Virus record (IMG/VR): IMGVR_UViG_2778261515_000017
Span: 1 to 9,631 of that record
Strand: one strand, 5' to 3'
DNA: 9,631 nt
Origin: a virus
Lineage: Duplodnaviria; Heunggongvirae; Uroviricota; Caudoviricetes
Shown: positions 1 through 9,631 of the stretch, piece after piece
Layout of the letters: each line of letters starts with the position of its first letter
Numbering within the stretch: position 1 is the first letter of the stretch
Program-made: the position numbers and the translations under genes
Notes under the pieces: model-generated
Told to the model about the DNA's origin: nothing
Seen by the model: the letters and a program-made list of their open reading frames with translations, nothing else
Databases searched by the model: none

Positions 1-1257
1 GTGCTTACCGATACAAAATTAAAAAACCTCAAGCCGCAGGACAAACTGTACAAAGTCTCCGATCGTGACGGGCTGTATGTAGCTGTGCTTACGTCAGGTA
101 CGGTCTCATTTCGCTATGACTACCGTATCAACGGTCGCCGCGAAACACTGGTAATCGGGCAGTATGGGCGTGACGGTATCAGCCTGGCAGAAGCGCGGGA
201 AGAACTGATTGCTGCAAAGAAGCTGCTTAAAGCAGGCCAGTCACCGGCTGCGGCTAAACGTGACGGTATCAAAAAGATTCGTGGTGCCGAGACGTTTGCG
301 GTACATACCGACAGTTATATGAAACACGTCATCCTGGCTGACAGTACCCGCGCAATGAAACAGGCGGTGATCGACCGTGACATACTTCCGGTTCTTGGCA
401 ACAAAATGATGGCTGAAATTACCACATCGATGGTTCGTGATTTATGTGACCGGATTGTCGAACGCGGTGGCCGGGCAACAGCAGTACAGGCCAGGGAGAT
501 CATCAGCAGCGTATACCGTCACGCCAATGACCGTGGTCATGGTTTGTTTAATCCTGCGGCTGACATTAAACCTTCGTCTATCGCCATATTTAAACCACGA
601 GAGCGAACACTGACACCAGAAGAAATTGGTCTGTTCTTCCGTATGCTGGATGCCATTGGTGCTATGGGCACTATGAAAATGGCTTTAAAGCTGGTGCTTA
701 TCACTATGGTTCGTAAAGGCGAATTCACCAATGCAACGTGGGATGAAATAGATTTTAAAAAATGGACATGGACAATTCCTTCAGACCGCATGAAGGGAAG
801 TCGGGCGCACGTTATTTACCTGCCTAAACAGGCACAGGATATATTAATCGGGTTGCAGATGTGCGCTGGTGGAAGTGAATATCTGGTTCCTGGTCGTTAC
901 AATTTCCGGAAGCCATTATCTAATGCCGCGCTGAACTCTCTGATCGACAGAACGGTGAAAATAATAAATGAAGATGGTGAGCATATTCAGGACTTCACTG
1001 TACATGATATGCGCCGTACAGCCAGTACGTTGTTGCATGAGGCTGGTTATCCTTCAGACTGGATTGAAAAGGCTCTGGCACATGAGCAGAAAGGTGTGCG
1101 CGCCGTATATAACAAAGCGGAATACGCCAGACAGCGCGCCTACATGTTGCAGCAGTGGGCAGATATGATTGATTCCTGGATTAACGGGGAGCATACGGAT
1201 CTGATTCCGTTCTCCCCGTCGAAGTTTGAGAGGTGGATGGAAGGCAGTAATAAATAA
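1..1257 (+). CDS. int: Phage tyrosine integrase (P4-type, DUF4102-like N-terminal arm-binding domain plus catalytic domain); GTG start at position 1, so the CDS may begin at or just upstream of the window edge
   Basis: 418-aa ORF. N-terminus MLTDTKLKNLKP...GLYVAV...FRYDYR matches the conserved start of P4-family integrases. C-terminal HDMRRTAS...LAHEQKGVRAVYNKAEY matches the catalytic H-x-x-R ... Y region of tyrosine recombinases. Identification is from motif memory, not a search. Confidence 0.85.
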   Translation: MLTDTKLKNLKPQDKLYKVSDRDGLYVAVLTSGTVSFRYDYRINGRRETLVIGQYGRDGISLAEAREELIAAKKLLKAGQSPAAAKRDGIKKIRGAETFAVHTDSYMKHVILADSTRAMKQAVIDRDILPVLGNKMMAEITTSMVRDLCDRIVERGGRATAVQAREIISSVYRHANDRGHGLFNPAADIKPSSIAIFKPRERTLTPEEIGLFFRMLDAIGAMGTMKMALKLVLITMVRKGEFTNATWDEIDFKKWTWTIPSDRMKGSRAHVIYLPKQAQDILIGLQMCAGGSEYLVPGRYNFRKPLSNAALNSLIDRTVKIINEDGEHIQDFTVHDMRRTASTLLHEAGYPSDWIEKALAHEQKGVRAVYNKAEYARQRAYMLQQWADMIDSWINGEHTDLIPFSPSKFERWMEGSNK

Positions 1258-1259
1258 TT

Positions 1260-1919
1260 CTATCCTTCCTGGACTTTGGTAAGCGTCAGATTTCCGCAGA
1301 ACACTGCGCCGGTGTCGATGTACATCTGGTTTGCATACACCAGTGGGTGATGTGCTGGCGTATGACCGAAGATGAACAAATCGGCACCGGTTATCTCCGA
1401 GACAATACCGTCCTGCGCGCCGCTAACCCGCTCACGATTCCATATCACCATTTCTTCCGGTACTGGCTTATCGAATGCGTATTCGTTGTGCGGGTAGTCT
1501 GCGTGGCAGATGACGACCTTCTTATTGCCGGTAACCAGTTCGATAATCATCGGGAGGTTGGTAATCTTTGGCAGAAGGTATTTGAGTTTCACATCCTGCT
1601 CAGAATCAAGTTGGTGCCACCATCCACCGCCGTTTGACATCCAATGTCCGAAACTTCCGCCGTTGACCAGTGCATCCAGCATCATCTGCTCATGGTTGCC
1701 ACGAACAGCTCGGAACCACGGCATAGTAATCAAATCCAGGCATTCGACGTTTTCAGCGCCGCGGTCAACAAGGTCACCAACGGAAATAAGCAAATCGCGC
1801 GCCGGGTCGAATGAAACTTTGTCGAGTTCGTTCATCAGCAGCGTGTAGCACCCATGCAGATCGCCGACGACGAAGATATTGCACCAGTCAGCGCCATTGA
1901 TGCGTTGATATAGGTTCAT
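1260..1919 (-). CDS. Ser/Thr protein phosphatase, lambda PPase (NinI)-like metallophosphoesterase
   Basis: Translation from the internal ATG ([26 protein letters not shown]...GDLVDRG...GNHE...FIFGHTP...) carries the calcineurin-like GDxHG/GDxxDRG/GNHE motifs and is near-collinear with lambda PPase as I recall it. SD GGGAG 8 nt upstream of the ATG at 1919. The 40-codon upstream extension of the track ORF overlaps the methylase gene and is rejected. Confidence 0.85.
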
Positions 1920-2566
1920 GCTACACGCTCCCGCCCCTGGTTGTCTGTTGGTGACAGCGGAGCATTGCTGAATGCATTTGTTAATCCGCCAATATCCAAC
2001 GCGTATCCAGGATGTAGTTGCACTGCCGGGTCTTCGCACTGATTACCCCAAACATCGAAGCCATGAGACGACTGGCGGGCGAACAGTTCAATGCGAGAAA
2101 CATCGCCTAACAATTGCACAAGTTTTTCACGAACGATATCTGGTTTTCTTGAATGCTCAAGCCGCGGTGCGGTAAATGACTGAACGATCCCTGCATTAAT
2201 GCGCGTAGGTAGTTTTCCCTTTACCGCAAACAGGCAATCTTCACTATTGGCGCGAGTCATGTGTCCCATACCCATAACCAGTTTATCTGGTTGTCGGCTA
2301 CCACATTTTATCCACGTGAAGCCCTTCATCGTCATCAGACGAAATCCCCAGGCTTCAACAACTTTTAGTGCTTCGAGTGGTTGTGTTGGCACCCACCACA
2401 TGGCCAACAGACAGTTTTCAGCGGTCAAATCCCACACAGGAAGGCGGCAGATATCCAGCACACTCATAACAGGATATTTAAAGCCGGCACCGCGATTACC
2501 ATCTGCGGCTTTGTCCCGGTATACCCAGGGTGGATCTGCATAGATTAGTGTGTATTTCTTAGTCAT
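1916..2566 (-). CDS. MT-A70-family N6-adenine DNA methyltransferase (DPPW motif)
   Basis: [14 protein letters not shown]...; the DPPW catalytic motif is characteristic of the MT-A70 family. ATG at 2566 preceded by a G-rich SD; the GTG at 2578 is an alternative start. Its TGA stop overlaps the phosphatase ATG (ATGA). Confidence 0.75.
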
Positions 2567-2858
2567 AAACCACCCCACAACATCCTATGCCGCTATAGTC
2601 GCCACGGCGAAGGCCGTTACCTTTTGTGATACATTGGTCCCTGCGAACCGCGATCCTTGCACGCTCAACATCACCAGAAGCAACATCCATACACTGAAGC
2701 CAAAGGTGAGCGGCAATGCGGAACTGCCCTTTTTTCTCTCTTTCAATCGCGCGTTTTTCGATCTCTATCGCCGCAGGAGTAACGGCGACAATCTTTGACG
2801 GACTGCGCATTGAAACCTTGTTCATGTGATATTTTTCAAGTCGGCTTAACTTTCTCAC
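2559..2858 (-). CDS. ANR-family-like small protein (putative small regulator); start ambiguous (GTG 2858 with SD GAGAGGG, or ATG 2825 without clear SD)
   Basis: 99-aa ORF. Central ...GQFRIAAHLWLQCMDVA... resembles the conserved core of small prophage proteins annotated as ANR family, from memory. Overlaps the methylase start by 8 nt. Confidence 0.45.
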   Translation of the reverse strand: MRKLSRLEKYHMNKVSMRSPSKIVAVTPAAIEIEKRAIEREKKGQFRIAAHLWLQCMDVASGDVERARIAVRRDQCITKGNGLRRGDYSGIGCCGVVYD

Positions 2859-2967
2859 TTAATCCAACCCTCTCTGAAAATTAATGCCAGCAGATAAAGC
2901 CATGCTGAAACAGAGGCCAGGAATAAGTACCATCCTGACCATTTGCTCCAGTGCCTTAGCAGCGCAC

Positions 2968-3216
2968 TCATGCAGCGTTGCTCACAGGACGATATACACG
3001 TTGCTGAACAGGAGGCTTTTTACCTTGGAACTCTGCCGGGCTTGCTGCCTGACGTTCATCAAGCCAACGCTCAACTTCGTCACGGTTCCATGCGCAGCGT
3101 TTGTCAGTGATATACCAGCGTTTAGGAAATTCCCCTGCGCGCTCCATACGGTCGATAGTGCTCCATGACAGTGGCACCACCGCCAGGAGTTCCTTCTTAC
3201 CTAATGCACCTTTCAT
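2968..3216 (-). CDS. AlpA-family HTH DNA-binding protein (MerR-like prophage regulator / candidate excisionase)
   Basis: 82 aa. LLAVVPLSWSTIDRMERAGEFPKRWYITDKRCAWNRDEVERWLDER fits the AlpA/Xis-type pattern (S-x-ST-I-x-R ... G-x-FP ... W ... EV-x-WL). SD GAGG 5 nt upstream of ATG 3216. Confidence 0.7.
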   Translation of the reverse strand: MKGALGKKELLAVVPLSWSTIDRMERAGEFPKRWYITDKRCAWNRDEVERWLDERQAASPAEFQGKKPPVQQRVYRPVSNAA

Positions 3217-3265
3217 AAATACCTCTCTTGGTTGCAGTGCGGCGCGCGTGGCGCCGCGGTGGTGG

Positions 3266-4207
3266 TTACATAGATGTTTCGTTTAATTCTTCCCGACGAA
3301 CGCTGTAAACGTCGGTGGCTTTTGCCAGCAGTTCGTCATCATCTGAAAGTTTTTGTGCAATGTATTTGTAAGCCTTATCCAGTTCGGAGACAGTGCTGTA
3401 ATTCATCGCTGCGCTGGTAAAGGCCATCAGCATTTCTTCTGGATCACGGCTATCCGCTTTACGCGTTTGCTCATCAGGCTTTTTCACTGTTTTAGCGTTG
3501 ATCAGACTATTAATTCCCGCAGCCGTAGTTGTTTGCGGAGTAATGTCTCGCTCAACGCGCGGTGCCGTTTCCTGTAATTCGTCAGGTGTATAGACGCCCA
3601 TGATTACGTCAGGACAGTGCAAGCGAGACCAGCGTTTTGTCGCAAGGTATGCGAGTTGTTGTTTCGGATCGCTGGCCCAAAGTGTGGAGTTTCTTACCTG
3701 TGCCTGAGACAGCATTAACTCGAGCACTCGAGGTTGATCCTCTCCCTTCATGGTTGCCCATACGCGAACACCGCAGCCTTCTTCGTCTTTTATAGTCCAG
3801 CCTGGTGCGATATACGGATTGCCGTTTTTGGATGTTTTCTCAACAAACTTACCGATCACGCGTTCCCACGGCCCGAACCACTCGTAGTTGATGCGATCTT
3901 TTGTTGGCGACATTGTTGAGATAACTGCGTTTACTAATTGGGCTTCATAACCTAGCGTGCCGTTCACAACATGGGTTTTCTGAGCCACGGCAAACGGGTT
4001 CATTCCCCACTGCGCAGCCTGCATTGCCACGGCCATGCAATCAGCTGGTTTCCCGGCGAGGTGCGCCGGTACCGTTACGCGGCTTTGCGCCATTACCTCG
4101 GCGAATTTCATCAGTTGGTTCAAGCCGTCTGGGCTGAAAATAGTTGCAGCAGTGCCAGCGATTGCTGTGTCTACTGGTGCGTTGATGTTTGCGATGTTGT
4201 TGCTCAT
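3266..4207 (-). CDS. recT: RecT/Redbeta-family single-strand annealing protein
   Basis: 313 aa. Shares an ERDITP segment with lambda Bet as I recall it, and sits immediately downstream of an exonuclease gene with a 4-nt ATGA start/stop overlap, the typical exo-SSAP pair. The family call has not been checked by search. Confidence 0.72.
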   Translation of the reverse strand: MSNNIANINAPVDTAIAGTAATIFSPDGLNQLMKFAEVMAQSRVTVPAHLAGKPADCMAVAMQAAQWGMNPFAVAQKTHVVNGTLGYEAQLVNAVISTMSPTKDRINYEWFGPWERVIGKFVEKTSKNGNPYIAPGWTIKDEEGCGVRVWATMKGEDQPRVLELMLSQAQVRNSTLWASDPKQQLAYLATKRWSRLHCPDVIMGVYTPDELQETAPRVERDITPQTTTAAGINSLINAKTVKKPDEQTRKADSRDPEEMLMAFTSAAMNYSTVSELDKAYKYIAQKLSDDDELLAKATDVYSVRREELNETSM

Positions 4208-5025
4208 ATGTACATATCCTGTTTACGTGCCCAGTCAGGGCGTTTAATAATTTCCACGCCACCCCATTCATCATTGATGCGGCATTCGTGATAGGTATTC
4301 AGATCCCGGCGGAACAGAGCGTGCCCGGTATCGACATCCTTCGCATCCAGCTCGAACACGCGTACCGGATACCGACCACAATCAATGCTTTCGCTCACGG
4401 CAAGAAAGAAAAAACCATGCGGCTGACCAGTAACCCTCATTGCGCCTTCACGGTACATTGCGTCCTGCACGTGGTAGCGGAATTCCTCGATGTGGCGAGC
4501 AAAACGATCCATATCTGCAACCTTTTTCACGTCGACGATTACGTTGTGCTCGTTCAGCCATTTGTCTGGACGAATTCGGCACAACTCACCCGTCTCTTCA
4601 TCGTTCCAGTACATTGATGCTTCGCAGTAACCAGGTGCTTCCAGCATCCAGCGTGCCGCCGGGTGAGCCATTGCGCTATCACGCATCAGCTCCAGTTTTC
4701 GCCACTGCTCTGCATCAAGTACCGAAATCCCCATATCCGCTACATCACGAATAAATGCCTCTTCGTCAGCTTTACCTTGTTTTGTCCGACGATCGAATTT
4801 CGGTGAAACGATGAAGCGTTTGTCAAACTCTCTAGGTTCCAGAAGCAGACAGTGCAGAGCAGTACCCATATCCAGTGCAGACTTCTTCTCTTCGTCTTCC
4901 GGAGCAGCCTTCACCCATTTCAGAAGGGCAGGGTTCTTAGCCACCATATCTAGCTGCGACTTACTCACGCCGTCACCGGCGTGGTAGTCCTCGTTGCTGA
5001 TATCGAAATAAATTCCCGGATTCAT
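4204..5025 (-). CDS. RecE-like PD-(D/E)XK exonuclease (nuclease domain only, DUF3799-like)
   Basis: 273 aa. N-terminal GIYFDISNEDYHAGDGVSKSQL resembles the start of the RecE catalytic domain. ...IRPDKW... and ...VIVDVKKV... fit D ... (D/E)xK nuclease motifs. SD GAGGG 7 nt upstream. ATGA overlaps with both neighbouring genes. Confidence 0.7.
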   Translation of the reverse strand: MNPGIYFDISNEDYHAGDGVSKSQLDMVAKNPALLKWVKAAPEDEEKKSALDMGTALHCLLLEPREFDKRFIVSPKFDRRTKQGKADEEAFIRDVADMGISVLDAEQWRKLELMRDSAMAHPAARWMLEAPGYCEASMYWNDEETGELCRIRPDKWLNEHNVIVDVKKVADMDRFARHIEEFRYHVQDAMYREGAMRVTGQPHGFFFLAVSESIDCGRYPVRVFELDAKDVDTGHALFRRDLNTYHECRINDEWGGVEIIKRPDWARKQDMYI

Positions 5026-5321
5026 GCCGCGTCCCTCTGCCCATCAATCTGATCAGCCAGATCCCAGCGGGCGATAATTGCCATTGCCTCGCGCCGGTAG
5101 GCATCCATTAGTTCTTCGAACTCAGGGCTGTCTTTAGCGGCCTCCAGTACTTCCTGGCGAACGCCTTTAACTGTTACAACGTCGAAAGTTGATGCCAGTT
5201 GATGAAGCCGGATACTCTCAATCAGTTCAACTTGTCGGTCATATAGCTGTTCTGACAGGCGGTAGTCCTTGTCGAATGCCAGCATGATTTTTTGAAGATT
5301 TTTCTGCTGATTAACGTTCAT
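5022..5321 (-). CDS. Hypothetical protein (99 aa), unknown function, second gene of the pL-type operon
   Basis: ORF with a strong SD (GGGAGG) 7 nt upstream of ATG 5321 (MNVNQQKNLQ...). Its stop overlaps the exonuclease start (ATGA). No recognisable motif. Confidence 0.55.
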   Translation of the reverse strand: MNVNQQKNLQKIMLAFDKDYRLSEQLYDRQVELIESIRLHQLASTFDVVTVKGVRQEVLEAAKDSPEFEELMDAYRREAMAIIARWDLADQIDGQRDAA

Positions 5322-5323
5322 TA

Positions 5324-5476
5324 TCAGCCCTCCCATATCTCGTTATCGTTGGCCACATCGCGAGCTTCTTTGCTGACGAAAGCCCACTTAATGCCTTCCT
5401 GTAAGGTGCGGAACTTCCAGCTCATGAATCCGCATGCAGTAACGCAGTACCAACCGTTGATGATTTTCCACTGCAT
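5324..5476 (-). CDS. Small ORF (50 aa, Trp/Cys-rich), first ORF downstream of the pL-type promoter; candidate Kil-like or small regulatory peptide
   Basis: ATG 5476 with SD GAGGT 8 nt upstream; translation MQWKIINGWYCVTACGFMSWKFRTLQEGIKWAFVSKEARDVANDNEIWEG. TGA stop lies 2 nt before the next ATG. Below the ORF-track length cutoff; supported only by SD and operon context. Confidence 0.35.
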   Translation of the reverse strand: MQWKIINGWYCVTACGFMSWKFRTLQEGIKWAFVSKEARDVANDNEIWEG

Positions 5477-5495
5477 AACTTGTTACCTCGGTCTG

Positions 5496-5572
5496 TTACC
5501 GTTGAGGTAATAATTATGCGTATATGGTTTGATGTCAATAGATATGAGTTAAAAAAATTACCCGTTAGGTAA
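5496..5572 (-). promoter_or_regulatory. pL-type promoter flanked by two operator palindromes (OL region)
   Basis: Operators TTACCGTTGAGGTAA (5496-5510) and TTACCCGTTAGGTAA (5558-5572), centres 62 bp apart. On the - strand, a perfect -35 TTGACA (complement of 5533-5538), 17-nt spacer, -10 AATTAT (complement of 5510-5515) whose last base is the first base of the downstream operator. Predicted TSS near 5503. Confidence 0.55.
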
Positions 5573-5582
5573 TCGAATAGGC

Positions 5583-5609
5583 AATAAAAAAGCCGCCATA
5601 AGGCGGCTT
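5583..5609 (-). terminator. Rho-independent terminator downstream of the repressor gene (tImm-like)
   Basis: 8-bp GC-rich stem AAGCCGCC/GGCGGCTT (5590-5597 with 5602-5609), 4-nt loop, followed on the - strand by a U-tract (complement of the A-run 5583-5589). No T-tract follows on the + strand, so it is unidirectional. Confidence 0.7.
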
Positions 5610-5629
5610 ACTTACTGAAAAATATGGTT

Positions 5630-6214
5630 TTATTGTTTGTTTTTTTCGTTCTGGTTGATGACAAATTCAATGTAACTTTCGATCTTTGCTTTCTCGGTTT
5701 CGGGTAACAATGCGTAGCGCGAGCGGTCATAGTTGATAGTCGCGGGGTCGTGCGGGTGAATCAGTAATTCATAGCCGTGACGCCCGAATGCGGATGCAAC
5801 ATTCTCCAGGGTGGAAATGGAAACGCTAACCTCATTGTTTAACAGGCGGCTGATTGTCACCTGGGCGACGCCGGATGCGCGGTGAAGTTTTCCCTGAGTT
5901 GAAAGGTCGCGGCTTTCGCTCATCCAGCGTTCCAGGTTGTGAGCCGCCAGCTGACCAATGTCGCTTGGGCCGACAGGCTGAAAACCTTCCTGAGAAAGCG
6001 AGCGATCGATATCAAGCCAGTTACGGGGTTTATTGGCGGCAGCTTCAATTTTTCGCGCAACCTGGTCGCCGATAACCTTCTTGCCAAGAGCCCAGCGGTT
6101 TACCAGATTTGCCTGAGTTCCAAGTTTTTCTGCCATCCGCGTCTGAACACCATTGAATTCACGGTCGATCAAGTCGTTGAGATTTTGCCTGCGGACGTCC
6201 TGGATACTTTTCAT
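5630..6214 (-). CDS. Prophage repressor at the cI position: dual-HTH protein (CII-like N-terminal HTH plus XRE-type HTH), with no LexA/S24 peptidase domain evident
   Basis: 194 aa. ...TRMAEKLGTQANLVNRWA... resembles the lambda CII HTH; ...GKLHRASGVAQVTISRLLNNEVSVSISTLENVASAFG... is XRE-like. Divergent from the Cro-like gene across an operator-rich region and followed by a strong terminator, which is the lambda immunity-region topology. Weak or absent SD, possibly leaderless like cI from pRM. Confidence 0.65.
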   Translation of the reverse strand: MKSIQDVRRQNLNDLIDREFNGVQTRMAEKLGTQANLVNRWALGKKVIGDQVARKIEAAANKPRNWLDIDRSLSQEGFQPVGPSDIGQLAAHNLERWMSESRDLSTQGKLHRASGVAQVTISRLLNNEVSVSISTLENVASAFGRHGYELLIHPHDPATINYDRSRYALLPETEKAKIESYIEFVINQNEKNKQ

Positions 6215-6269
6215 TTTCTGGAAAATCGCCTCATATATGAATCAGTAGATGATTCAATTTAAAGCAATA

Positions 6270-6343
6270 TTACCCAACAGGTAAATGCACCCCATAGGTA
6301 ACTATCCTTGATTTTTGTTACCTTATGGGTGAATATTTATTAT
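6270..6343. promoter_or_regulatory. Divergent OR-type operator region between the repressor and Cro-like genes, with a pR-type promoter
   Basis: Operators TTACCCAACAGGTAA (6270-6284), degenerate GCACCCCATAGGTAA (6287-6301) and TTACCTTATGGGTGA (6318-6332). Rightward promoter candidates: -35 TTGTTA (6315-6320), 17 nt, -10 TATTAT (6338-6343); or -35 TTGATT (6308-6313), 17 nt, -10 GAATAT (6331-6336). Either overlaps the 6318-6332 operator. No convincing leftward (pRM-type) hexamers found. Confidence 0.5.
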
Positions 6344-6368
6344 CTGAAATAAATATCAGGCAATAGCT

Positions 6369-6599
6369 ATGAGCGATAACGGACATTTCGATTTCAAAAA
6401 GCACTGGCTTGCACTTACTCCGGATGAGCGTGAAGCCTTCGCACAGGAAGCCGGAACGACGAGTCACTATATCCATACTCACTTAACAGGTAAGCGCAAA
6501 ATGCCAGGTAAAGTATTGATGAATGGGCTTTTTAAAGCCTGTAAAACAAGACAATGGCTGCGCTCAAAAGCAGAACTGGCATACTTCTTCTACTCATGA
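6369..6599 (+). CDS. Cro-like small HTH regulator (first gene of the rightward operon)
   Basis: 76 aa. HTH-like segment FAQEAGTTSHYIHTHLTGKRKMPGKVLMNGLFKAC. Divergent from the repressor gene; its promoter overlaps an operator palindrome. Confidence 0.55.
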   Translation: MSDNGHFDFKKHWLALTPDEREAFAQEAGTTSHYIHTHLTGKRKMPGKVLMNGLFKACKTRQWLRSKAELAYFFYS

Positions 6600-6620
6600 T
6601 ATCCAGCCACAACCCTCTGT

Positions 6621-6645
6621 AGACCGCCATCCGGCGGTCTTTTCA
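6621..6645 (+). terminator. Rho-independent terminator after the Cro-like gene (tR1-like)
   Basis: Stem AGACCGCC (6621-6628) / GGCGGTCT (6633-6640), loop ATCC, followed by TTTTC. Confidence 0.5.
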
Positions 6646-6749
6646 TATCTATTCGTACCTCAAAGGTAATAAAAAACCAAATATGGTTGATCTTTTTTTT
6701 GTGTCAGCACAAAATAACCGTAATCCCAATACTAATAACAGGGCTTACC

Positions 6750-6950
6750 ATGGAAATCATTACACGTATTGATGCCGCAAAGCGCGGACTTAAACGCTAC
6801 TACACCGGAAAACCATGTAAGCACGGACATGACAGTGAACGCTGGGTTTACAACGGACACTGTGTTGAGTGCACCATGGAATCAAACCGTCGCATCAGGG
6901 CAGAGATTAAGCAGATCATGATTAATTCCTCCCCACAACACTCAAGCTGA
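6750..6950 (+). CDS. Small Cys/His-rich putative zinc-binding protein (66 aa) at the cII position
   Basis: ATG 6750 with SD CAGGG; MEIITRIDAAKRGLKRYYTGKPCKHGHDSERWVYNGHCVEC... with a C-x-H-x-H ... C-x-x-C pattern. The track ORF starting at 6687 uses a TTG and is rejected as an N-terminal extension. Confidence 0.5.
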   Translation: MEIITRIDAAKRGLKRYYTGKPCKHGHDSERWVYNGHCVECTMESNRRIRAEIKQIMINSSPQHSS

Positions 6951-6965
6951 TAGCGGAGATTAATC

Positions 6966-7799
6966 ATGAGCAGACATGCAACAGATTGGGCCTGGGAGAC
7001 AGATCCAGGTAGCTCGTCATTAAAGCTCATACTGCTCTCGATGGCTGACAGAGCCGATGAATATAACCTCTGCTATCCCAGCATAGAACGCCTAGTTAAA
7101 GACACTTGCCTGAATAAAAAAACCGTACAGGCCGGGCTTATATCGCTCATGAAAATGGGGCTTATTTCAGATACCGGAGAGAGAAAGGGAGCGACGAAAA
7201 GAGTGCGGGTTTTCTCTCTTAATATAACCAAAAACGGGAACATTAAAGGCAACCGGGAAGGGGGTAACGATCCCAAAAACGGTAATGTTACCGAAAACGG
7301 GAATATACCCAAAAACGGGATGTTGAATGATCCCAAAAACGGGATGTTGAATGATCCCAAAAACGGGATCCAGAACCAGTCATATAACCAGTCATTTAAC
7401 CAAGAGAGGGAGAGCAGGACAAAAATCGGGGATTCCGTGCCCCATGACCCCGGCGCAAACAACGCCGTGATGAATAACTTTGTTCCTCCAGGTGGGCCAG
7501 GGCAATTAGGCAAATTTGTCATGCATGAACAATGGCAGCCATCAGATGACTTTCTTCGGAAAAGCTCATTGCAGGGAATCTACCTGGGCAGTCTGCCAAC
7601 GGCACAGGAACTTGCAGAGTTCAGAATTTACTGGATGGCTGAGGGTAAGGCATACCATCAGGCGCAGTGGGAGCAGAAGCTGGCAAGGCGCATCCAGTTC
7701 TGTAGACAGAAATCAGGTGAAGTCAGAAAGAGCCTTGACTGGCATAACACTGACTGGATAGATGAGGTGTGGGATGAAATCAACTCCAGAACTTCTTAA
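6966..7799 (+). CDS. Replication initiation protein (O-like): N-terminal winged HTH, central iteron-encoded repeat linker, C-terminal DnaT-like domain
   Basis: 277 aa. N-terminus LKLILLSMADRADEYNLCYPSIERLVKDTCLNKKTVQAGLISLMKMGLI is typical of phage replication-initiator HTH domains. The central NDPKNGML repeats are encoded by the DNA iterons. Immediately upstream of the P homolog. SD GGAG 7 nt upstream. Confidence 0.75.
   Translation: MSRHATDWAWETDPGSSSLKLILLSMADRADEYNLCYPSIERLVKDTCLNKKTVQAGLISLMKMGLISDTGERKGATKRVRVFSLNITKNGNIKGNREGGNDPKNGNVTENGNIPKNGMLNDPKNGMLNDPKNGIQNQSYNQSFNQERESRTKIGDSVPHDPGANNAVMNNFVPPGGPGQLGKFVMHEQWQPSDDFLRKSSLQGIYLGSLPTAQELAEFRIYWMAEGKAYHQAQWEQKLARRIQFCRQKSGEVRKSLDWHNTDWIDEVWDEINSRTS
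7228..7405. repeat. Origin-of-replication iterons inside the O-like gene, plus downstream short direct repeats
   Basis: Six copies of the core CC(A/G)AAAACGG at about 7229, 7273, 7291, 7308, 7332 and 7356. The last three are spaced exactly 24 bp apart and form the palindrome ATCCC-AAAAAC-GGGAT, resembling lambda ori iterons. Followed by AACCAGTCAT direct repeats at 7374-7383 and 7386-7395. Four GATC sites fall within 7269-7370. Confidence 0.65.
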
Positions 7800-8556
7800 T
7801 GAGTACTATCGCTTTCGTGGTGGGCATGACCACTCGACGGTGGTTGCTTCTGCTGACGATGAAAGGGCAAAGAAGGAGCAGGTTGCAAGAATTTTCAACG
7901 AAATGTTTGTCCAGTTGCAGGCTGCATTTCCAGGCAGCATCGCTGCTATCAGCGAACAGGGAAAGCTAAACGAATTTCGAAAACAATGGATGCTTGCGTT
8001 TCTGGAGAATGGGATCACTACAATGGAACAGGTTAACGCTGGTATGCGCCACGCCCGCGCCAGTGAATCTCCGTTCTGGCCGTCGCCTGGGCAATTCATC
8101 AAGTGGTGCAAAGACAGCAAGATGGTTCTTGGCGTCACCATTGACGATGTGATGGCGGAGTTTCATCGGTACAGCAAGGAAAAAAGTTTATATCCTGGTG
8201 GTCCAGAAAGATTCCCGTGGCGACATCCGGTTATGTACTGGGTTGTATGTGATACCCGCCGCGCAATGTATCAGCGCCAGCTTAGCGAGATTGAGGTTGA
8301 GAAACACGCGCGCAGGCTGCTCGATGATTGGGCGAAAAAGGTGGCTTCCGGACAGCAGATACCCGATCCGGTGATCAGCATACAGGCAAAGCCAGAACCC
8401 ATGAGTACGCCTCCGGACACAGGGAGAGACGTTTACCATCCACCAGGGCGAAGTTTCGGGTGCATGCCTAACGCCGCCACCCTGGGGGGAATAACACCGG
8501 CGCAGTGGCTGATGGAGGAATACAGGCGGGGAAAGGCGGCAGGATTTATCAAGTAA
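7774..8556 (+). CDS. P: Replication protein P homolog (DnaB helicase loader)
   Basis: Contains ...FLENGITTMEQVNAGMR...FWPSPGQF..., near-identical to the lambda P segment FRENGITTMEQVNAGMR...FLPSPGQF as I recall it. ATG 7774 with SD GAGG; 26-nt overlap with the end of the O-like gene. Confidence 0.85.
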   Translation: MKSTPELLNEYYRFRGGHDHSTVVASADDERAKKEQVARIFNEMFVQLQAAFPGSIAAISEQGKLNEFRKQWMLAFLENGITTMEQVNAGMRHARASESPFWPSPGQFIKWCKDSKMVLGVTIDDVMAEFHRYSKEKSLYPGGPERFPWRHPVMYWVVCDTRRAMYQRQLSEIEVEKHARRLLDDWAKKVASGQQIPDPVISIQAKPEPMSTPPDTGRDVYHPPGRSFGCMPNAATLGGITPAQWLMEEYRRGKAAGFIK

Positions 8557-8560
8557 TACC

Positions 8561-8581
8561 AGCGCGATAGCGCATTTTTTT
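8561..8581 (+). terminator. Weak terminator-like hairpin plus T-run just after the P stop codon
   Basis: Short stem AGCGC / GCGCA around loop GATA, then a T-run 8575-8581. The stem is only about 5 bp, so this is marginal. Confidence 0.3.
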
Positions 8582-8593
8582 ACGTCTCAATAA

Positions 8594-8670
8594 TTACCTA
8601 TTGGGTAATAAAATATTCTAAACTCTATTGATTTCGTGTCTTATGTGGTTTTTAATTACCTCAAGGGTAA
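8594..8670 (+). promoter_or_regulatory. Third operator-flanked promoter (P3) upstream of the DUF1064-like gene; same geometry as the pL-type cassette
   Basis: Operators TTACCTATTGGGTAA (8594-8608) and TTACCTCAAGGGTAA (8656-8670), centres 62 bp apart. -35 TTGATT (8628-8633), 17-nt spacer, -10 TTTAAT (8651-8656) ending on the first T of the downstream operator. Gap from upstream operator to -35 is 19 nt, as in the pL-type cassette. Confidence 0.5.
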
Positions 8671-8673
8671 ATC

Positions 8674-9021
8674 ATGAGAAAACAGATACAGGCTCTTGGT
8701 CGACTCAAAACAGGCCAGATGAACAAAACAGAATCTGCGTATTGCCAGCACCTTGAGCAGCGTAAACGCGCAGGGGAAATCGCCTGGTATCGATTCGAGG
8801 GTATCAAGCTGCGGTTAGCCGACAACACGTTCTATACGCCCGATTTTGCTGTGATGCTCGCCACCGGAGAGATGGAACTGCACGAAGTGAAAGGGGGATT
8901 CTGGACCGACGACGCCAGGGTGAAAACCAAAGTAGCCGCAGATCAGTATCCGTTCCGAATCATCGGGGTAACGGTTAAACCAAAGAAAGCAGGTGGTGGC
9001 TGGAACATCGAAGAATTCTGA
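8674..9021 (+). CDS. DUF1064-family phage protein (possible PD-(D/E)XK-like fold)
   Basis: 115 aa. ...NKTESAYCQHLEQRKRAGEIAWYRFEGIKLRL...YTPDF...ELHEVKG... matches the DUF1064 signature as I recall it. Its start codon lies 4 nt downstream of an operator palindrome. Confidence 0.6.
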   Translation: MRKQIQALGRLKTGQMNKTESAYCQHLEQRKRAGEIAWYRFEGIKLRLADNTFYTPDFAVMLATGEMELHEVKGGFWTDDARVKTKVAADQYPFRIIGVTVKPKKAGGGWNIEEF

Positions 9022-9082
9022 ATCGACGATCTTTTTAGTTATCAATGTAATCAATAAGTTATGTGGATAAGCGAGGGTAAAG

Positions 9083-9631
9083 ATGGAAAGTATGGCTGAA
9101 GGTACGATCAAAGATTTAGTGGCATCAGGACATGCGTTAGCTGACGACATGACAGGTGCACCATCCGTGCTTGTTCGCTGTTTGGCAACGCAACTGGAAG
9201 TACAACTGGTGCGTGCTAATGCGCTGGCCGAAGACCGCATCACCACCGAACACTGTCAGGCGCTGGCGCTGGAGAACGACACCGCGCGTCAGGTGCAGGT
9301 GTTTGAAGCCGCCTGTCAGTCGGGATGGGGCGGTAAACCGGAAGTACAGACCATTCGTCGTCTGGTGACCGAAAGTGAAGTGGCGGTGGCGGGGAACAGT
9401 AAATTCCGCTTCGTGGGGGCTGATGCCTTCTCGCCAGACGAACTGCGCACCGATTTGTTCAGCGATGACGGGGACGGTTATGTCGACCGCGTGGCGCTCG
9501 ATGCCGCCCTGCTGGAAAAACTCCAGGCTGTCGCTGAACACCTTCGGGAAGCCGAAGGCTGGGAATGGTGCGCCGGACGCATGGAGCCTGTCGGTGAGTG
9601 CCGTGAGGATGCCGGAACATACCGCTGTCTG
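9083..9631 (+). CDS. Unknown acidic protein, 3'-truncated by the window edge (at least 183 codons with no stop); GC-rich relative to the rest of the window
   Basis: ATG 9083 with SD GAGGG 5 nt upstream; the frame stays open to the window end. Translation MESMAEGTIKDLVASGHALADD... is protein-like, whereas the overlapping minus-strand track ORFs look like GC-driven artefacts. No recognisable family. Confidence 0.45.
   Translation, partial: MESMAEGTIKDLVASGHALADDMTGAPSVLVRCLATQLEVQLVRANALAEDRITTEHCQALALENDTARQVQVFEAACQSGWGGKPEVQTIRRLVTESEVAVAGNSKFRFVGADAFSPDELRTDLFSDDGDGYVDRVALDAALLEKLQAVAEHLREAEGWEWCAGRMEPVGECREDAGTYRCL

Follow-up and report, generated by a model that had tools for sequence, protein, structure and literature searches.

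A putative in-gene replication origin of the lambda plan, paired with an initiator of a second family, in the early region of a phiV10-like phage

Gene O of phage lambda contains the replication origin of that phage, oriλ, which combines four 18-base-pair (bp) iterons with an AT-rich tract of 38 bp (PMC3349717, PMC7466680). The origin described here is predicted from sequence, in a stretch of 9,631 nucleotides (called the window throughout) that covers positions 1 to 9,631 of the IMG/VR virus record IMGVR_UViG_2778261515_000017. The region from 7225 to 7402, within the gene of a 277-amino-acid (aa) initiator, is very likely to be the origin of vegetative (theta-type) replication in a temperate phage of the phiV10 type, an origin laid out on the lambda plan but served by an initiator of a different family. 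No published description of this origin was found in the searchable literature.

The likeness to oriλ and to the six-iteron origins of the Shiga toxin (Stx) phages 933W and P27 concerns first the location, within the stretch of the initiator gene that codes for the linker, and then the presence of four to six dyad-symmetric iterons around 20-24 bp apart (mostly 18-24 bp in the window, 20-24 bp in lambda). As in these phages, the number of iterons varies between relatives and the length of the protein varies with it (PMC7466680, PMC3349717). The half-sites are also comparable, ATCCCTC-AAAAC-GAGGGAT in lambda and ATCCC-AAAAAC-GGGAT in the window, with an A-tract in each repeat and an A-rich top strand; the window iteron resembles the lambda iteron ATCCCTCAAAACGAGGGAT, and the blocks TCCC, AAAAC and GGGA occur in both. 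Furthermore, a loader gene of the P family follows immediately downstream, and the order upstream is that of lambda, with a pR-like promoter, a cro-like gene and a terminator. The two systems also differ. The N-terminal domain of the initiator is HTH_36 instead of Phage_rep_O, and its C-terminal domain is DnaT-like and not of the lambda O type; the TCCC and GGGA blocks of the window are separated by 3 bp less; a 12-bp repeat, in two to three copies, lies where lambda has its strongly AT-rich tract; and the arms of the window iterons contain GATC, which is absent from oriλ.

The iteron origins of plasmids that encode a winged-helix initiator (RepA of pPS10 and pSC101, RepE of F, π of R6K) and oriR of P1 share with the window the direct repeats spaced by about two helical turns, the winged-helix DNA-binding domain and the variable number of repeats. 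At P1 oriR, the iterons are accompanied by GATC-containing repeats that need Dam methylation; these GATC sites lie in separate 7-mers and not in the iterons. The iteron plasmid origins differ from the window in being located outside the initiator gene, and they usually feature 13-mers in an AT-rich tract as well as DnaA boxes; in the window, a DnaA box was not found within 1.6 kilobases (kb) of the array. No sequence match and no specific fold match linked the window initiator to Rep proteins. The C-terminal domain of the initiator is matched by E. coli DnaT (primosomal protein I; PDB 4OU6, 6AEP, 9ZBT) through the C-terminal single-stranded DNA-binding domain of DnaT, and both proteins are encoded next to a helicase loader (dnaT-dnaC in the host, the initiator gene followed by a P-like gene in the window). 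However, DnaT acts in PriA-dependent replication restart and has neither a sequence-specific winged helix nor iterons, whereas the window protein would represent the fusion of such a domain to an origin-binding module.

Six CC(A/G)AAAACGG cores are present on the + strand of the initiator gene, starting at 7228, 7273, 7291, 7309, 7333 and 7357, with start-to-start distances of 45, 18, 18, 24 and 24 bp. Only 0.06 cores are expected by chance in the window, and none of 200 shuffles equalled the count. The three best scores of Tandem Repeats Finder in the window belong to arrays with periods of 24 bp (7308-7369, 100% matches, score 124), 18 bp (7272-7320) and 12 bp (7374-7402, AACCAGTCATAT, 2.4 copies, score 51). 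The elements of the region are as follows.

7209-7248, + strand: least stable 40-mer in the gene (GTTTTCTCTCTTAATATAACC...), stability z score 2.3, at the left edge of the array
7225-7240, + strand: iteron 1, TAACCAAAAACGGGAA, outlying, 45 bp upstream of iteron 2
7270-7285, + strand: iteron 2, ATCCCAAAAACGGTAA, ATCCC-N6-GGTAA, with the GATC at 7269 in its left arm
7288-7303, + strand: iteron 3, TTACCGAAAACGGGAA
7306-7321, + strand: iteron 4, TACCCAAAAACGGGAT, first 24-bp unit, TACCC-N6-GGGAT, symmetry limited to the CCC/GGG arms
7330-7345, + strand: iteron 5, ATCCCAAAAACGGGAT, perfect 5+5 palindrome, left arm overlapped by the GATC at 7329
7354-7369, + strand: iteron 6, ATCCCAAAAACGGGAT, perfect palindrome
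7374-7402, + strand: second repeat, AACCAGTCATAT / AACCAGTCATTT / AACCA(AGAG), period 12, directly to the right of the last iteron

The iterons conform to the consensus (A)TCCC-AAAAAC-GGGA(T). Two of them are perfect 5+5 dyads, a third is symmetric over 3+3 positions (CCC/GGG) and the remaining three are imperfect; iteron 6 with its flanks (GATCCC-N6-GGGATC, 7353-7370) reaches 6+6 symmetry with one GATC in each arm. An earlier note on this DNA had described six cores in the gene, followed by AACCAGTCATAT direct repeats, and both were recovered (7228-7366 for the cores, 2.4 copies for the repeats). Its third description, of three perfect ATCCC-N6-GGGAT palindromes with a 24-bp period, has to be corrected, since only those at 7330-7345 and 7354-7369 are perfect. 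In the protein, the array corresponds to aa 88-145 of 277, between HTH_36 (aa 18-67) and DnaT (aa 184-250). A seventh exact core, CCAAAAACGG, lies alone on the minus strand at 3822-3831, in a RecE/RecT-like gene 3.4 kb from the array; it may have arisen by chance, at the rate given above, or may be a stray initiator site.

The array was then compared among close relatives, comprising seven GenBank phages and 80 IMG/VR contigs with 44 distinct array variants. These carry four to nine iterons, and the variants differ solely by in-frame steps of 18 or 24 bp. Among the 80 contigs, iteron 1 was kept in 77, the other three having CCAAAAAAGG, while the position of iteron 2 was occupied by GAACCCGAAAACGG in every one; the change in the window looks like a conversion from the left half of iteron 5 or 6. 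The 12-mers of phiV10 have one copy more than those of the window (a third 12-mer). Variability at third codon positions, calculated from 51 distinct variants of the same length, was 0.12 in the iteron array and 0.00 in the 12-mers. The parts that encode the two domains gave higher values, 0.24-0.27, and the spacer without repeats that separates iterons 1 and 2 gave 0.40.

A scan of viral contigs for related loci yielded near-identical relatives only. More distant ones were retrieved by tblastn with the initiator, and they share only its N-terminal half. This half was found in Edwardsiella phages GF-2 and EPP-1, E. coli phage PPompW, Vibrio phage Her, Acinetobacter phages AP22 and Ab105-2phi, Burkholderia phage Bcep176 and the sludge-metagenome EBPR podovirus 1. 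All nine phages with the HTH_36-type N-terminal domain, the window included, carry a CCCAAAAACGGG-type motif in the part of the gene that encodes aa 88-152, in two to six copies per phage at the thresholds used (two or fewer mismatches). Elsewhere in the 3-kb loci of the distant relatives the motif is nearly absent, with a few single matches at two mismatches. According to the frame, CCCAAAAACGGG is read as PKNG, TQKR or DPKT among the homologues, and the copies within one EBPR podovirus 1 gene are in frames 0, 1, 0 and 2. Since the same motif is found in several reading frames and encodes unrelated peptides, the constraint acts on the DNA and not on the peptide. Moreover, the outer arms differ by lineage and stay symmetric (ATCCC/GGGAT, ACACCC/GGGTGT, GTCCC/GGGAC), a co-variation that a symmetric dimer site would be expected to show. 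In all nine phages a GAAC(C)AG-type repeat of short period comes directly after the iterons; Vibrio phage Her has the 11-mer GAACCAGTCAT twice with a period of 13, in two reading frames, and GGAACAG-type repeats occupy the equivalent place in Bcep176 and EBPR podovirus 1.

The C-terminal domains of the nine initiators, as far as scanned, are DnaT-like, lambda-O-like or neither, and the partners are equally varied (P, a DnaB-like helicase, others), with a DnaB-like helicase gene downstream in AP22 and Ab105-2phi. No CCCAAAAACGGG-type motif was detected in TL-2011b and SPN1S, which combine a DnaT-like C-terminal domain with another N-terminal domain. Since the repeats are present with the HTH_36-type N-terminal domain and absent with the other, the domain and the repeats form one module, as would be expected for an initiator and its own origin. 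These data show that the repeats exist, that they are constrained as DNA and that they accompany the N-terminal domain across distant phages; the gene neighbourhood, too, is established as listed below. We infer origin activity, binding by the initiator, the start of unwinding and the contact with P.

Two observations were made beside this comparison. The linkers of TL-2011b and SPN1S have repeats of their own, GTAACGC...GTAACGC...GCGTTAC at about 1320-1360 of the TL-2011b locus and GTCCGC...GCGGAC...GCGGAC at about 1470-1510 of the SPN1S locus, which are candidate origins of a second specificity type. The GF-2 initiator (1501-2343 of its locus) is a chimera, in which an HTH_36-type N-terminal domain and CCCAAAATTGGG iterons are joined, just past the array, to a C-terminal domain of the lambda O type (phrog_277, phrog_2357), and the P gene comes next.

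The initiator itself consists of an N-terminal winged helix (around aa 1-87), the repeat-encoded linker (aa 88-145) and the DnaT-like C-terminal domain (aa 184-250). Pfam assigned its two domains to HTH_36 (E 2.2e-10) and DnaT (E 4.3e-14), the protein matched phrog_1032, 'replication initiation protein', with an E value of 1.6e-100, and the C-terminal domain (aa 180-255) matched DnaT chains of the PDB with an E value of 3e-19. An AlphaFold2 model of aa 1-95, with a predicted local distance difference test score (pLDDT) of 85.5, has four helices (3-11, 17-28, 40-47, 51-63) and two strands (67-72, 81-85); the modeled fold is a winged helix. The array begins at aa 88, immediately past the last strand (wing) of this predicted domain.

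The gene had previously been termed O-like. The term holds for its role and position, because an initiator gene does occupy the place of O, but not for its Pfam families. BLASTP of the window initiator against lambda O gave no significant alignment (best E 0.075 over 17 residues). Membership of the O family, or direct homology to lambda O, was rejected on the basis of BLASTP and of a profile comparison by hhalign that is given below, and only indirect PHROG cross-matches connect the two proteins: the N-terminal regions of both match PHROG profiles 678 and 345. A remote common ancestry is plausible but unproven. The first iteron of lambda starts at O codon 117, where a segment ends that hhalign aligned, at a non-significant level, with aa 41-85 of the window protein.

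According to the mechanism that we propose, dimers of the N-terminal winged-helix domain would bind the six iterons, and the bound array would assemble into a nucleoprotein complex resembling the O-some. This complex would destabilize the DNA next to it, on the right at the 12-bp AACCAGTCAT repeats or at the left edge in the weak duplex. The DnaT-like C-terminal domain would then recruit the lambda-P-like loader carrying the host DnaB, while rightward transcription from the pR-like promoter would cross the site, as it does in lambda. The 12-mers at 7374-7402 are a candidate unwinding or helicase-loading region, and the stretch at 7209-7248 is a candidate alternative unwinding site. In the nearest-neighbour profile, the right flank (7367-7406) is 58% A+T with a moderately low stability (z 1.6), and an AT-rich unwinding element on this side was only weakly supported; the least stable duplex within 700 bp is intergenic, at 6645-6684 (z 2.7).

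Several results weigh against this origin. The searchable literature yielded no experiment on it or on a relative of the HTH_36 type. The low variation of the repeats could come in part from homogenization between copies instead of selection. The fold matches of the N-terminal model in the PDB were generic dimeric winged-helix regulators (MarR, Fur, PerR) with weak E values of 3e-3 and above, and no Rep or initiator structure was matched in that search. No match to PF04492 (Phage_rep_O) was obtained at E ≤0.01, where lambda O itself gives 5.7e-36, and the hhalign comparison of a six-sequence profile with lambda O was not significant (probability 3.6%). Finally, no marked AT-rich tract is evident by the iterons, the z value of 1.6 on the right comparing with 3.4 for the AT-rich tract of lambda. 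The earlier description of the locus as a classic lambdoid origin embedded in the initiator gene is correct as regards the in-gene array in the linker, the adjacent gene of the lambda P family and the motif that travels with the N-terminal domain; it is overstated as regards the initiator, which belongs to another Pfam family, and the AT-rich tract, of which no strong form is evident next to the iterons.

The four GATC sites of the array (7269, 7329, 7353 and 7367, within 102 bp) raise the question of a Dam-controlled origin, in which the arm GATC would make initiator binding or SeqA sequestration dependent on methylation, as at oriC and P1 oriR, in a layer added to origin function. Three of the four sites overlap the AT of the ATCCC/GGGAT arm, so that the methyl groups would sit inside the presumed recognition sequence. 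Since the methylated A and T are inside the arm, an effect of methylation on binding is possible in the E. coli/GF-2 lineage, and GF-2 has the GATCCC unit three times. The range over which SeqA bridges GATC sites includes spacings of 24 and 14 bp. We nevertheless regard such control as unlikely. The window as a whole contains 37 GATC sites where 38.9 are expected, and at least four sites within 98 bp would be found somewhere in the window with a P value of about 0.17 if 37 sites were placed at random. The tenfold excess over random that had been noted earlier is thus correct as a local count (four sites where about 0.4 are expected per 100 bp) but is not significant. The sites are, besides, copies of one unit: those at 7329 and 7353 are the identical base of an exactly duplicated 24-mer, and the number of GATC per close relative, from two to six, follows that of the 24-bp units. 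Only the window has the site at 7269, which is found in none of the 80 close relatives; these have AATGAACCCG.

In the distant relatives, no GATC was present in the arrays of AP22, Ab105-2phi, Bcep176 and EBPR podovirus 1, nor in oriλ; EPP-1 has one, GF-2 three (the same GATCCC unit) and Vibrio phage Her a single peripheral one at the edge. The host of Her is presumably Dam-positive. An Asp codon begins with the G that precedes ATCCC, and this G is therefore not free to vary. The over-representation of GATC was rejected as an independent signal on the scan statistic, the dependence on the repeats and the comparison of relatives, and the suggestion of the earlier note that Dam methylation could modulate initiator binding received no positive support, given the P value, the tracking of the repeats and the absence from distant relatives. 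In our reading, the cluster is a by-product of the repeats, owing to the spelling of the outer arm as G-ATCCC in E. coli and Edwardsiella GF-2, and would not be a separate regulatory device.

The phage-encoded MT-A70 methylase (1916-2578, minus strand) was considered in the same context. More than 100 Stx2a-converting phages encode, beside their integrase gene, methylases to which it is around 83% identical. M.EcoGV, a close relative of a published Stx-phage enzyme of this family and hence a putative relative of the window enzyme, methylates GATC, but only when overproduced (PMC10810198), which is in favour of Dam-like control. Against it, that Stx-phage enzyme of the MT-A70 family is reported to act mainly on 16S rRNA, which it preferred over DNA when complexed with its small partner PNB-2 (PMC10810198). 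Beside the window gene for MT-A70 lies a small gene at 2559-2858, which is PerC-like in phiV10. A more elaborate scenario seems to us just as doubtful as Dam control: the arm would have been respelled GATCCC in the GF-2/E. coli branch, each 24-bp unit adding a Dam site; firing would be gated by methylation, through hemimethylation and SeqA or through methyl-sensitive binding; MT-A70 would reset the origin independently of the host Dam; and the number of iterons (four to nine) would tune the gate.

A second alternative accepts the repeats as initiator sites but gives them a mainly regulatory role (copy control, autoregulation by titration or handcuffing, exclusion of related phages), with unwinding in the AT-rich intergenic region at 6645-6750. 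The least stable duplex lies indeed in that region, and cloned iterons of lambda alone inhibit the replication of phages of the same replication type (PMC3349717). We consider this distinctly improbable, because no repeats or dyads of the iteron type occur in 6600-6960, the composition of the intergenic region is accounted for by terminator and promoter-like sequences, and the second short-period repeat directly after the iterons in nine phages is the layout of an origin and not of an operator. That the repeats are merely a protein feature, a slippage-prone low-complexity linker of NDPKNGML repeats with no role as DNA and an origin elsewhere, is the least probable of all, for although the region does code for a linker and not a folded domain (mean pLDDT 49 at residues 91-95) and its copies change in number freely, always in frame, one and the same 12-mer is kept in three frames with unrelated peptides, its synonymous positions vary less than those of folded domains, and dyad symmetry with lineage-specific co-variation would make no sense for a peptide.

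An origin of the lambda plan at 7225-7402 would provide a concrete candidate for phages and prophages of the phiV10 type, which serve as reporter and typing phages for O157. Of 5,426 complete E. coli genomes, 536 (about 10%) carry this initiator gene, with a 100% match in strain rl0044. It would also extend the lambda origin plan to a second initiator family, in which the DNA-binding domain and its sites move together and are paired with varied helicase-loading partners. For annotation, an HTH_36 domain followed by CCCAAAAACGGG repeats may serve as a signature of origins in unannotated phages of Gamma- and Betaproteobacteria; at present the initiator is labelled at NCBI only as 'DnaT-like ssDNA-binding domain-containing protein'. 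The understanding of phage replication is unchanged by what would be an ordinary origin of this plan, and the GATC aspect adds little.

The repeats are, in addition, a trap for gene callers. In YDC107_2 (CP025713, 580-848), single-base indels, mostly in A or G runs in or beside the iterons, break the initiator frame, and many initiator proteins in the databases are truncated or frameshifted within the array. A protein search with aa 1-90 returned mostly such fragments ending in the array, which show the alternative frames. These indels and frameshifts are most likely errors of sequencing or assembly at the repeats.

Escherichia phage phiV10 and its relatives have an early region that is around 96-97% identical to the 9.6-kb window, which identifies the latter, by sequence comparison, as the early region of a phiV10-like temperate phage of the genus Uetakevirus (ε15-like temperate podoviruses). 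The neighbouring genes and signals are, in order:

First in the gene order: integrase
1916-2578, minus strand: MT-A70 methylase, after the integrase
Between the MT-A70 methylase and the repressor: RecE/RecT-like gene
5630-6214, minus strand: divergent repressor gene
6315-6343, + strand: pR-like promoter, from a consensus scan
6369-6599, + strand: cro-like gene (phrog_35 transcriptional repressor, E 9.5e-13)
6621-6640, + strand: tR1-like terminator; the phiV10 annotation has a terminator at the same place
Between the terminator and the initiator gene: small open reading frame
6966-7799, + strand: initiator gene, 277 aa
7762-8556, + strand: lambda-P-like helicase loader gene (Pfam Phage_lambda_P, PF06992, E 4.2e-53; phrog_109 'P-like helicase loader', E 2.3e-87)
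Downstream of the P-like gene: DUF1064 gene

The segment 6315-6640 (+ strand) is a unit of early transcription, directed rightward toward the putative origin. The loader gene follows the initiator gene directly and overlaps its end, including the stop codon; the ATG at 7774 may be the true start of the P-like gene. No RNA family was matched by an Rfam search of the window. Early regions of the temperate phiV10 type also occur in two records, phage BP9 (PP488543; 138 kb, classed as Vequintavirus) and PH444 (PP350014; a 115-kb UNVERIFIED record), in which DNA of a lytic phage and of a host prophage has probably been assembled into a chimera.

A mosaic joint was observed within the initiator gene, where identity of the phiV10 type ends at about 7690-7711. 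Positions 7730-7819 match TL-2011b, ZX5 and HEMP4 at 92%, and one exchange has therefore brought in the 3′ part of the initiator gene along with the beginning of the P gene. The initiator ends in a tail with SLDWHNTDW (around 7731-7757, aa 256-264), and the sequence LDWHNTDWI resembles the end of lambda O, LDLTNTDWI. Similar tails are found in GF-2 (VDLTNTDWI) and TL-2011b (LDWNNTDWI), while the bodies of the C-terminal domains are otherwise unrelated among the initiators sharing the tail. A P-like gene follows the tail in lambda, GF-2 and the window, and the neighbour in TL-2011b matches the start of the window P gene. The shared tail may be a motif for contact with P or may reflect a constraint imposed by the gene overlap.

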